From an uncultured bacterium (GTDB lineage: Bacteria > Bdellovibrionota_C > UBA2361 > JANWWW01): DNA of 64,000 bases. This document shows, one piece after another, positions 3,550 to 8,493 of the stretch; position 1 is the first letter of the stretch, and each line of letters begins with the position of its first letter. Where the stretch lies: assembly GCA_938038205.1 (NCBI GenBank), contig CALHSA010000001.1:211-64210 (forward strand), written 5' to 3'. The notes under the pieces were generated by a model. That model ran no database searches, was not told where the DNA came from, and was given only the letters and a program-made list of their open reading frames with translations. A program made the position numbers and the translations under genes.

Positions 3550-4200
3550 ATGTCTGCGGCTGTGGTTGAAAAAGGAGCTGTATCTGAGGGCTTGGAGCTA
3601 TGCAAAAAAATAGTGAATGTAATAATAAAAAGATTTGGAATTGATACGAGTTTATACGATGACTTGCTTGGAGCTGCTCAGTTGGGTCTGGCTGAGGCCA
3701 TTAAGCGATATGATTCTTCAAGAGGTGTTGATTTTCTGAGTTTTGCAGCTCTGAGAATTAGAGGGTCGTGCTTAGATTATCTTCGGACCTGCACTCATCT
3801 TGGGCCCAAAGGTTACAAGTTAGCCAAAGCTTTAAAATTATTTCAAGAATATCAAGAGCAAACTTACAGCAAAGGGATTCAAGCCTCTGACTTGATTTGC
3901 ATTGGGGCACTAACTTGGAAAATAACGGTTGAAAAAGATGAGTTAGAGAGAAAACCAACTGAAGAATCTGACCCTGATGCAGAGCTTGAAAAAAAGGAGG
4001 TCACTAAAATTATAAAAGAAATTGTTAAAACTCTTCCTAAACTTTATCGAGATATTTACTCAGCGTGCTACGAGGGAGATATGTCCTTTGCTGATTTTGC
4101 TAGAGGGAGGAGAGTTACAAAAGCTAGTATCTCTAAGGCTCACAAACGAATGCTCGAAATTATTAGAAGCAAACTGTATGAAGCTGGTTATTTTAATTAG
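3550..4200 (+). CDS. Sigma-70 family RNA polymerase sigma factor, FliA/WhiG (sigma-28)-like
   Basis: Region 2 reads LGLAEAIKRYDSSRGVDFLSFAALRIRGSCLDYLR; the RIRGxxxDxLR pattern is typical of FliA-type sigmas. A C-terminal region 4-like HTH is present (RRVTKASISKAHKRMLEII). It is the first gene of the T3SS-like cluster. Confidence 0.75.
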   Translation: MSAAVVEKGAVSEGLELCKKIVNVIIKRFGIDTSLYDDLLGAAQLGLAEAIKRYDSSRGVDFLSFAALRIRGSCLDYLRTCTHLGPKGYKLAKALKLFQEYQEQTYSKGIQASDLICIGALTWKITVEKDELERKPTEESDPDAELEKKEVTKIIKEIVKTLPKLYRDIYSACYEGDMSFADFARGRRVTKASISKAHKRMLEIIRSKLYEAGYFN

Positions 4201-4858
4201 TGCAATATTTTTCCTTGGTTGCAAGGTTTCTTTGCTAAGTTCGTTAAGTGAAGCAGATGCGAATTATGTGCTCCTTTATTTGAGAAAAGCGGGTGTATCT
4301 GCTGAAAAAGTAGGTAAAAATTCAAAGTTTGAGATCAAAGTTCCTGAATCTCAAGTGACTTTAGCATTAGAGGTTATTAATAAGATTAAAATCTACTCAC
4401 ATGATAATTCATTTAAAAAGAACGCTAAGAGCTCTAAAGAGGAAGAAAATTTTTATCTGGAAAGACTCCTTGCAAAAGAACTTGAAGAAACAATCAGGAA
4501 TTTACCTGGGGTAAAAATTGCTCGGGTACATTTATTCTCCCCAAAATATGATTCTTTAGCATTAAAAAAGTTGGAGCTTGATAACTCAAAAGCTGCTGCA
4601 TTAGTTATAACTTCTAAAATTGATGAGATTGAGCCAGAGAAAATTAAAACAATAATTAGTGGAGCAAGTGGGATTCCAGAGAGCAAAATTCAAGTGAATA
4701 TCATGTTCTCTCCTGATTTAGAATTTGAGAACCTTTCAAATTCGGCACCGATTTCACGCTTTTTCACGTTTTCTATCTCTCATTTTTTCACCCTTGTAGC
4801 TCTTTTCTTTGGTTGCTTTGGTTTATATTATGTCTTTAGAAGAACTCCGAAGATTTAA
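4178..4858 (+). CDS. sctJ: T3SS inner-membrane ring lipoprotein, SctJ (YscJ/PrgK/HrcJ) family
   Basis: The N-terminus [44 protein letters not shown] parallels the remembered YscJ ...[45 protein letters not shown] parallels GVLVARVHVVLP. A C-terminal TM helix follows. The start is taken at the internal ATG (4178), just before the lipobox. Confidence 0.85.
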   Translation: [226 protein letters not shown]

Positions 4859-5069
4859 AAATAAGCTGGTTTTAAATTACAACGATGATATCAGTGATCA
4901 AGATATCGTGTACTTAATTCTTTCTCTCCTATTTAATCAGGTTAAAATTACGCAAATTAGGGAGATTGAGTTAGCCTTTCTACTTTGGCTAAGCAAGCGC
5001 TCTCCAGAGAGTATTTTTGAGATTCTTAAAGTTTTGAATAATCAACTTGTTTGCGATGGAGACTGCTGA
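4830..5069 (+). CDS. Hypothetical small protein within the T3SS-like cluster
   Basis: ORF between sctJ and the SpoA-domain gene. ATG at 4830 (MSLEELRRF...). It overlaps both neighbours, consistent with one operon. No recognisable motif. Confidence 0.4.
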   Translation: MSLEELRRFKNKLVLNYNDDISDQDIVYLILSLLFNQVKITQIREIELAFLLWLSKRSPESIFEILKVLNNQLVCDGDC

Positions 5070-7801: not shown

Positions 7802-8246
7802 TTCATTTTTTTTATTGATAGGCTGTTCTAGCATTCAGAACACTGGAGTTGATTTAAGGTTAATTTATCTTGATGATTATTTAAACAATGCTAATAGCGA
7901 GTATTTAGTTGGAAATTATGAGAGAGCAGAACTCCTGGCAAGAAAGGCGTTGAGTTTGGATAACTGTAATTCACTCGCCCTGGATATTATAGGGCTGTGT
8001 AGAATAAAAAATGACGATATTGAGGAGGCAGAGAGGAATTTTTACGAAGCAATTAGGTGTAATCCCTTATATCATAAAGGCTATACGCATTTAGCTGTGG
8101 TTTACCATTTAAAGGGTGATCGTGAATCTGCATGGAAACTTTTGCAAAAAGCTTACGATATCAATCCTATGGATATGGAAATAGATGAGGTAAAAGTATT
8201 TCTTTTAAAATCTGAAAATGATTTAGAGGTAGCTTATGAAAACTAA
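7758..8246 (+). CDS. TPR-repeat lipoprotein
   Basis: Signal peptide plus lipobox (LLLISSFFLLIGCSS). About three TPR-like units follow (YERAELLARKALSLD..., AERNFYEAIRCNP..., ESAWKLLQKAYDINP). An alternative ATG lies at 7773. The 5' end overlaps the sctV 3' end. Confidence 0.7.
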   Translation: MGLKIMILHLLLLISSFFLLIGCSSIQNTGVDLRLIYLDDYLNNANSEYLVGNYERAELLARKALSLDNCNSLALDIIGLCRIKNDDIEEAERNFYEAIRCNPLYHKGYTHLAVVYHLKGDRESAWKLLQKAYDINPMDMEIDEVKVFLLKSENDLEVAYEN

Positions 8247-8493
8247 AAAGAAGGAACTAGAGAAAAAAAACGCTAAAAAAGACCCCGTAATTATTAGGTA
8301 TCTCTCAAAGTTTCTCAACGAATTTAAATTAAAATACTCATATACTGATTTAACCTTTGAGGAGAAACTTCAAATTTTTGTGAGTGAATTTAGCAAATAC
8401 TGTGGTGATGATAGTGAAGAATTTAAAAACTATTTAAGCTTGATAATTGAAACTGATCCGATGTTAACAAATAAATTGAGGGAGCTTATTTAG
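8236..8493 (+). CDS. Hypothetical small protein (Lys-rich N-terminus, acidic C-terminal half)
   Basis: ORF overlapping the stop of the TPR lipoprotein gene; last gene of the plus-strand cluster. No recognisable motif. Confidence 0.4.
   Translation: MKTKKKELEKKNAKKDPVIIRYLSKFLNEFKLKYSYTDLTFEEKLQIFVSEFSKYCGDDSEEFKNYLSLIIETDPMLTNKLRELI

Follow-up and report, generated by a model that had tools for sequence, protein, structure and literature searches.

Eight genes at positions 3550-8493 of a 64-kb stretch of DNA from an uncultured bacterium (the window, by which the whole stretch is meant) may build a second, non-flagellar inner-membrane ring-and-gate complex of type III secretion system (T3SS) origin in a flagellated bacterium, with the export core and the ATPase coming from elsewhere. 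This is the reading that we tentatively prefer. The eight-gene module recurs in at least 35 loci, its export-gate protein of the FHIPEP family branches outside both flagellar FlhA and injectisome SctV and lacks the SD2 region, and the organism encodes a genuine flagellar set apart from the module. By the core-gene definition, the module falls outside the injectisome family; it is not a flagellar apparatus, nor is it a T3SS of the Myxococcales type.

The eight-gene module and its conservation

The initial annotation of this segment had proposed eight co-oriented, mostly overlapping genes, and the gene coordinates agree with it. Indeed, eight intact open reading frames (ORFs) follow one another in a single orientation, with successive intergenic junctions of -23, -29, -14, +2, -1, -29, and -11 nt. 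Since the genes overlap or nearly abut, the layout is as in one translationally coupled operon. Gene starts were refined with public gene calls on L107, a contig 99% identical to the window (L-numbers designate fetched loci, which were retrieved with flanks of up to 10 kb per side; several of these contigs measure 1-4 kb). The GC content of the module (0.34-0.37) is the same as that of the remaining window.

All genes of the module lie on the + strand. The first one encodes a sigma-70 family factor (3550-4200, 216 aa) whose nearest family is FliA/WhiG. It is followed by the genes for an SctJ-type inner-membrane ring lipoprotein (4178-4858, 226 aa) with a lipobox FLGC and one C-terminal transmembrane helix, for a small acidic protein called s1 (4830-5069, 79 aa), and for an SctQ/FliN-like protein (5056-5745, 229 aa) made up of one C-terminal SpoA domain and about 150 N-terminal residues without assignment. 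Next come an “F-like” basic protein (5748-6032, 94 aa), a candidate needle- or rod-like exported subunit, and the FHIPEP export-gate protein (6032-7801, 589 aa). The module ends with a tetratricopeptide repeat (TPR) lipoprotein (7773-8246, 157 aa), whose lipobox LIGC is followed by Ser, and with a small protein called s2 (8236-8493, 85 aa), whose N-terminus is rich in Lys and whose C-terminal helix is conserved. When positions 3300-9400 were scanned for consensus promoters and terminators, the scores were no better than with shuffled sequence, and no sigma-28 or sigma-54 consensus was found upstream of the module. The sole match in Rfam and tRNA scans was one tRNA-Leu.

The common gene order, sigma-J-(s1)-SpoA-94aa-FHIPEP-TPR-s2, recurs in at least 35 loci. 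Among 35 loci, the FHIPEP gene is present in 35, the gene of the 94-aa protein in 34, the SpoA gene in 28, the TPR gene in 26, the SctJ-like gene in 23, and the sigma factor gene in 20. The shortfalls mostly correspond to contig ends, and the loci devoid of the sigma factor gene are truncated. FHIPEP identity to close relatives (L001-L004) is 54-56% and falls to about 30-41% for distant ones (L005-L007, L101-L103). The module is also found in GTDB metagenome-assembled genomes (MAGs) labelled Bdellovibrionota, Bdellovibrionales or “Deltaproteobacteria” (L018, L019, L021, L023, L031, L044), and no cultured carrier was seen among the matches listed. The flanks are syntenic between close members and unlike between distant ones, and the GC content across the module loci spans 0.35-0.53. 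Maintenance of intact ORFs at about 30% FHIPEP identity points to selection. A profile search of genome contigs with the FHIPEP alignment returned mostly ordinary FlhA and SctV proteins, with at least six loci of the family among the matches listed. Finally, the suggestion that the system is undescribed is upheld by the open literature on T3SS, SctV, SctJ, and FHIPEP proteins of Bdellovibrio and Bdellovibrionota, in which no description of the module was found, subscription journals being outside the coverage.

The proteins of the module

The FHIPEP protein is recognized by PF00771 with 394.7 bits. The SctV model TIGR01399 gives 379 bits for a cut-off of 692, and the FlhA model TIGR01398 gives 333 bits for a cut-off of 772; in both cases, residues 5-309 alone are covered. 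Trees were built by neighbour-joining with 100 bootstraps from 32 family members and references taken from annotated records. The 16 SctV sequences included references from Yersinia, Shigella, Ralstonia, Nitratidesulfovibrio, and Sinorhizobium, and eight added sequences, which scored above the curated cut-off and came from Myxococcota, Chlamydiales, Acidobacteria, the Planctomycetes-Verrucomicrobia-Chlamydiae group, and other MAGs. FlhA was represented by E. coli, Ralstonia, Photobacterium, Rossellomorea, and Azospirillum. The family is monophyletic in 100 of 100 bootstraps, FlhA in 99, and SctV in 72, and the mean distances are 1.37 between the family and SctV, 1.49 between the family and FlhA, and 1.25 between SctV and FlhA. 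In these trees the FHIPEP family thus appears as a third, long-branched clade, outside both FlhA and SctV. The initial annotation had considered the protein as an injectisome-like SctV. What stands of this is an SctV score marginally above the FlhA score; both scores are far under their cut-offs and the protein lies outside the SctV clade. It also branches outside FlhA, and is hence not nested in the flagellar clade. In the same trees, a 652-aa protein annotated FlhA, encoded beside an EscU/YscU-family gene on Sinorhizobium meliloti plasmid pSme442-208 (L014:1905-3863), groups with SctV and is probably misnamed.

The cytoplasmic domain of the family is devoid of SD2. The occupancy of residues 435-483 (E. 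coli FlhA numbering) is 0.09 in the family vs. 0.97 in the references, residues D456 and F459 fall within the missing stretch, and the linker measures 21 aa vs. 40 aa in the references. In FlhA and SctV, chaperone-substrate or gatekeeper complexes dock at the SD2 cleft. The transmembrane domain, on the other hand, is complete. The charged transmembrane residues of FlhA and SctV serve proton-coupled export, and R94, R147, R154, D158, R185, K203, and D208 (same numbering) are invariant in 32/32 family members. The AlphaFold2 model of the FHIPEP protein has a mean confidence score (pLDDT) of 83, and its top Foldseek matches are YscV-C, MxiA-C, EscV-C, and FlhA-C (E about 1e-8, TM-score about 0.6), which confirms the fold. 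When 1.8 billion representatives were searched by phmmer with nothing but the C-terminal domain, two relatives came out, because this domain evolves too fast for a single-sequence search.

The ring protein matches PF01514 with an E-value of 1e-13, and scores 73.7 bits with the SctJ model TIGR02544 (cut-off 162) vs. 17.8 bits with FliF. A profile of nine orthologues matches MxiJ (6rwx) and PrgK (3j6d) over their full length with E 7e-17 and reaches FliF at E 1e-10 or weaker. The lipobox is conserved throughout the alignment. Together with the C-terminal transmembrane helix, these matches support the SctJ lipoprotein proposed at the outset, and, as judged from sequence, the ring lipoprotein that is a hallmark of injectisomes is present in the module. 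The module does not carry a fragment of FliF or FliE; a genuine 534-aa FliF and a FliE are encoded separately nearby. The SpoA domain is weakly detected in the window copy (PF01052, E 0.002). PF01052 matches 10 of the 12 orthologues, with a best E-value of 2.2e-9, and the family profile matches HrcQ2 (1o9y) with E 4.5e-8, and also FliN, FliY, and the C-terminal region of YscQ. An SctQ/FliN protein with a SpoA domain is thus confirmed, and, as the domain fits HrcQ2 and FliN about equally, SctQ and FliN are not distinguishable here. In the TPR lipoprotein, announced as such by the initial annotation, the TPR_2, TPR_1, and TPR_8 models all score above their cut-offs and a lipobox is found in every orthologue read. 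Weak matches to PilW (1.4e-6), LcrH/SycD (1.3e-6), and Tgl (1e-3) make it a candidate outer-membrane or periplasmic partner of pilotin type.

The 94-aa protein belongs to a family of 164 clusters, all annotated as hypothetical and none carrying a Pfam domain. Its N-terminus is variable and probably disordered, while its C-terminus is very conserved, with the consensus LL..Q...Q..M.....SN(I/V).K..HE..MAP(I/V)RN(I/M)R.G found in 117 of the 120 homologues used for the count. The AlphaFold2 model shows a short helix (33-46) and, after a turn, a long one (52-93); the pLDDT is 64 overall and near 90 in the long helix alone. Visual inspection places the motif in register with the end of MxiH/PrgI, LL..YQ...........SN..K...D...A.IQNFR. 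Profile alignment with five SctF sequences by hhalign gives P 0.016 in local and 0.036 in global mode, with the register held to the last residue, vs. P 0.32 with SctI and 0.74 with FliE. The single natural PDB match of the profile (E 0.5-1.3) is 7y6c_F, a chain of 43 residues that was deposited as a needle co-chaperone, but the sequence of which we read as the C-terminal half of an SsaG-type needle protein. Pfam, single-sequence hhalign against YscF and FliE, and Foldseek with the model gave no match, a hidden Markov model scan against ten small T3SS proteins gave weak scores with poor discrimination, and no similarity to the organism's own FliE was detectable. The needle-protein C-terminus claimed by the initial annotation is therefore visible in the register with MxiH/PrgI, but the statistics are weak. 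They are suggestive of a needle-like protein, and homology is unproven. The association with the gate gene is tight: the 94-aa gene lies directly upstream of the FHIPEP gene in 34/35 loci, among them 20/20 metagenome loci fetched independently by the 94-aa motif alone. The N-terminus (window 5748-5830, alignment A5) also contains a near-invariant R....P within L.R..PEPR; needle proteins have nothing equivalent to this element, which could serve as a signal or be processed.

The sigma factor carries a Sigma70_r2 match (E 6e-10) and a weak region 4. Its best family is TIGR02479 FliA_WhiG, with 75 bits, under the cut-off of 189.6; it is above the cut-off solely for the general sigma70 model TIGR02937 (60.2 > 42.9). 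The FliA-like character attributed to it from the start is consistent with these values, FliA/WhiG being the nearest family though under cut-off. Identity to orthologues is 32-52%. The small proteins s1 and s2 have no match in Pfam, NCBIfam or the PDB, and their profile searches gave chance-level matches. s1 is poorly conserved (mean column identity 29%, alignment A3), and L101 and L103 have no gene call at its position, after the sctJ-like gene and before the SpoA gene. The candidate assignment of s1 as SctS/FliQ was rejected upon sequence inspection, as no hydrophobic segment of membrane-spanning length is present. s2 directly follows the TPR gene in 13/13 aligned loci, its C-terminal helix carries the motif FL..LLETDP.L (alignment A4), and it is possibly a regulator or an anti-sigma factor.

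A gene encoding a receiver plus HisKA protein of about 240 aa occurs downstream of the module in 14 of the 35 loci, for example at L005:13676-14470, L006:12797-13519, L018:12757-13476, L019:13006-13713, and L103:5607-6317. It mostly comes directly after s2, with one gene between them in L005 and L103, and it is absent from the window's subfamily, window included. The FHIPEP proteins end with AA in 78 of 116 full-length members (P0002-P0120), 55 of which end with LAA; the window protein ends with TASY. These AA/LAA ends resemble the ssrA/ClpXP degron, which suggests regulated proteolysis of the gate protein. Because a sigma factor heads the operon, the receiver-HisKA neighbour is frequent, and ssrA-like C-termini are common, a tight developmental or checkpoint control of the module is suggested.

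Missing core genes, known systems, and proposed assembly

The phmmer queries for core genes were reference proteins of the Ysc, Asc, and Spa systems and of Nitratidesulfovibrio, and the Fli/Flh proteins of E. coli. None of SctN/FliI, SctRSTU, FliPQR, FlhB, and SctD was found in the 64-kb window. The SctRSTU gate core was not found in about 17 kb past both window ends (L104, L107), and SctRSTU, FliPQR, FlhB, SctN/L/O, FliI, and SctD were not found in the flanks of the 34 other loci, within 10 kb per side at most and with many metagenome contigs of 1-4 kb. The initial annotation had reported SctN, SctRSTU, SctD, and SctC as missing from the 64 kb and called the set secretin-less. The absences are confirmed, and “secretin-less” holds for SctC-type secretins but not for secretins at large. 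Indeed, the window encodes PilQ (9936-12008, - strand; 330 bits, cut-off 284) and GspD (43946-46393, + strand; 470 bits, cut-off 351), which reach 118 and 128 bits, respectively, with the SctC model (cut-off 238).

The flagellar genes are encoded apart from the module. L104, a 110.5-kb ENA contig of the same population, 99.5% identical to window positions 52972-64000, runs past the right end and carries the operon flgB-flgC-fliE-fliF-fliH-fliI-(fliJ-sized)-flbB (L104:1938-7682, - strand), 1.7-7.5 kb past window position 64000. FlgB, FlgC, FliE, FliF, and FliI score above curated cut-offs (FliF, 534 aa, 331 bits vs. 130; FliE, 69 bits vs. 30; FliI, 504 bits vs. 380), fliH is FliH-like, and fliJ is assigned by size. 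FliI, 5-6.5 kb past the window, is the sole such ATPase seen. Contig L107, found through an M20 peptidase gene, carries immediately left of the window a complete chemotaxis cluster (L107:1-7610) with cheW, a PAS protein gene, cheB, cheX, cheY, cheD, cheR, and cheA. Hence, this is a flagellated and chemotactic organism, in which the module comes in addition to a genuine flagellar set.

The module shares with the injectisome (Sct nomenclature of Abby & Rocha 2012, PMC3459982) an SctJ-type lipoprotein colinear with MxiJ/PrgK, a FHIPEP gate, a SpoA protein, and a small helix-turn-helix protein whose C-terminus follows SN..K......(R/Q)N(I/F)R as in MxiH/PrgI. In contrast to the injectisome, the 35 loci with their flanks (up to 10 kb per side) are devoid of sctN, L, O, R, S, T, U, D, and C, the FHIPEP protein branches apart from the SctV clade and has no SD2, the SpoA domain is single, the module has its own sigma-70 family factor and a TPR lipoprotein, and its host is a flagellated environmental bacterium with no eukaryotic host known. 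The Myxococcales T3SS (Myxo short and long loci; needle-less T3SS* of Myxococcus xanthus) resembles the module in being reduced, secretin-less, and from a former deltaproteobacterial lineage; it is also conserved over long evolutionary distances and was initially taken for a relic. However, the patterns are reversed. The Myxo loci carry sctRSTUV together with sctN and sctJ (plus sctI), without secretin and SctF (PMC3459982), whereas the module has J, Q, V, and a needle-like protein, but neither RSTU nor ATPase. Moreover, a Myxococcota SctV protein above the SctV cut-off groups with canonical SctV and not with the FHIPEP family of the module. The Myxococcus-style intermediate envisaged by the initial annotation is therefore not retained.

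The likeness to chlamydial FlhA/FliI/FliF (PMC2830194) is of another kind, that of a partial paralogue set with a gate and a ring protein beside a complete T3SS of another type. Chlamydia FlhA is also short (584 positions in NCBIfam model PRK05910); the window FHIPEP protein matches this model at 169 bits only. The polarity is reversed, in that the complete system is here the flagellum and it is the orphan set that resembles an injectisome; in addition, the Chlamydia set includes an ATPase but no SpoA or needle-like gene. As for the flagellar apparatus, each assignable protein of the module has a flagellar counterpart of the same fold family. Nevertheless, FlgB, FlgC, FliE, FliF, FliI, and a FliH-like protein are encoded elsewhere, the FHIPEP protein lies outside FlhA and has no chaperone pocket, and the ring protein is a 226-aa lipoprotein instead of a 534-aa FliF.

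In the assembly that we tentatively propose, the SctJ-type lipoprotein would form a ring on the periplasmic face, the FHIPEP protein would form a proton-driven gate ring, and the SpoA protein would sit on the cytoplasmic face of the complex. The 94-aa helical protein would be a dedicated exported or polymerising subunit, and the TPR lipoprotein may join the complex to the outer envelope. The FliA-like sigma factor would couple expression to the apparatus, possibly with s2. A gate without SD2 would probably handle few substrates, without a chaperone-ordered hierarchy. In the T3SS studied so far, the gate ring assembles around SctRST/FliPQR with SctU/FlhB. As SctRST, SctU, and the ATPase are never encoded with the module, their source must be elsewhere, the simplest one being the flagellar FliPQR/FlhB/FliHIJ of the same cell. 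The Chlamydia FlhA/FliI/FliF proteins are a precedent, being a partial T3SS paralogue set that was shown to bind components of the complete system (PMC2830194).

Several points weigh against this assembly. A foreign ring and gate are not known to use a flagellar core, and a dedicated sctRSTU/sctN locus may lie in the genome beyond the about 84 kb covered. SctD, the usual partner ring of SctJ, was not detected, and the module protein has one SpoA domain vs. two in SctQ. The similarity of the 94-aa protein to needle proteins falls below significance, and the phylogeny is a neighbour-joining one on simple distances, with the family on a long branch.

If the missing genes are the module's own, a dispersed but complete injectisome of Chlamydia style would result, with dedicated sctRSTU, sctN/L/O, sctD, and secretin genes elsewhere and a full needle complex of a new family. 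SctJ-type, SpoA, FHIPEP, and needle-like proteins are hallmarks of non-flagellar T3SS (NF-T3SS), Chlamydiales are among the groups with scattered NF-T3SS loci (PMC3459982), the resemblance of the TPR lipoprotein to secretin pilotins of PilW/Tgl type hints at an outer-membrane partner, and the view is limited to about 84 kb of the genome. We hold this explanation to be plausible but rather unlikely: none of the 35 loci has a further T3SS core gene in its flanks of up to 10 kb per side, the FHIPEP protein has no SD2 and stays outside canonical SctV even with Chlamydiales and Myxococcota representatives included, and PilQ and GspD are the only secretins seen. A self-sufficient minimal device, working without SctRSTU and ATPase, is quite unlikely. 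It would be either an exporter driven by the proton motive force (PMF) or a membrane signalling checkpoint controlling the sigma factor, with s2, for example, as an anti-sigma factor that is sequestered or exported. The sigma factor gene in first position, the receiver-HisKA gene in 14/35 loci, the AA ends of the FHIPEP proteins, which suggest controlled turnover, and the fact that a core gate or ATPase gene is never linked to the module would fit such a device. On the other hand, s2 resembles neither FlgM nor any anti-sigma family at a detectable level, and the needle-like protein points to a polymerising, exported substrate; we know of no FHIPEP protein that translocates proteins without a SctRST/FliPQR channel.

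The module proteins might also be accessory or alternative flagellar parts, such as a stage-specific FlhA paralogue that joins the basal body with its partners under a FliA-like sigma factor. The organism is indeed flagellated and chemotactic, the sigma factor is nearest to FliA/WhiG, flhA and fliA share one operon in many bacteria, and FlgO-like lipoprotein genes occur a few kb downstream in two loci. Yet this is improbable. FlhA is monophyletic without the FHIPEP family with 99% support; the family lacks SD2, and with it the D456/F459 pocket that in Salmonella FlhA binds the chaperones FlgN, FliS, and FliT; the ring protein is a lipoprotein of SctJ architecture while a normal FliF exists; and the organism's own FliE bears no relation to the 94-aa protein. 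Finally, the module could be seen as a decaying, functionless remnant of an injectisome or flagellar locus, since 3/9 canonical core genes alone are present and the proteins are divergent, under curated cut-offs. This last explanation, to which we give hardly any credence, is effectively refuted by conservation: the eight ORFs are intact, dozens of lineages with FHIPEP identities down to about 30% keep the gene order, none of the functional transmembrane residues varies, and the 94-aa motif is nearly invariant (117/120).

Current accounts of T3SS evolution know two machines, flagellum and injectisome, and the intermediate of the Myxococcales. To this picture, the module adds a third FHIPEP clade within a widely conserved set, a loss of SD2 that occurred in nature with the proton-coupling core left intact, and a composition complementary to that of the Myxococcus loci. 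In the module, nature offers an experiment on the abilities of FlhA/SctV when SD2 is gone. If flagellar FliPQR/FlhB/FliHIJ are borrowed, the module would offer a clear example of two surface machines that share an export core in modular fashion; if the module has its own dispersed genes, a new injectisome family would be present in environmental, probably predatory, bacteria. In both cases, cryo-electron tomography and genetics have a concrete target in the structure that ring, gate, and 94-aa protein build. A bolder view, which we consider unlikely, is that of a third major type III lineage beside flagella and injectisomes, with its own FHIPEP, ring, and filament-like families and a minimal gene set, acting as a PMF exporter or as a plug-in head. 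If true, the former version would mean an exporter needing no dedicated SctRSTU or ATPase, and the latter a flagellar export core re-purposed for a non-motility task, for instance in a predatory or Bdellovibrionota-type life cycle. The deep position of such a lineage could also bear on the origin of the injectisome from the flagellum.

Genomic surroundings

A type IV pilus cluster (9936-14554, - strand) converges on the module, 1.4 kb downstream. It contains pilQ, a pilM-like gene under cut-off, and two ORFs of pilN/O/P size without family match. PilQ as a conserved secretin of the module was rejected, because the adjacency is not kept in relatives, though the two may be linked in function. 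A type II secretion cluster, gspD-gspE-gspF, lies at 43946-49137 (+ strand). Genes for FlgO-family (PF17680) lipoproteins are found 1-7 kb downstream of the module at L006:18697-19443 and L101:13146-13964.

Flagellin and fliL, both mentioned in the initial annotation, are present in the window. The flagellin gene (22115-22957, - strand) is preceded by a sigma-28-like promoter at 22958-23010 (- strand), TAAG-N14-GTCGATAT. In the flagellar operon of L104, there is no fliG between fliF and fliH, and flbB matches the spirochaete-type collar protein FlbB with E 2.4e-9, under cut-off.

RpoN (26068-27417, - strand) is 52-55% identical to its nearest homologues, from “Deltaproteobacteria bacterium” MAGs, and at most 44% identical to the remainder. 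In a database of 5.8 billion sequences, its identity does not exceed 55% to anything and 38% to any named organism. Such values place the host, as far as its sequences tell, in a deep, AT-rich, and very sparsely sampled lineage.

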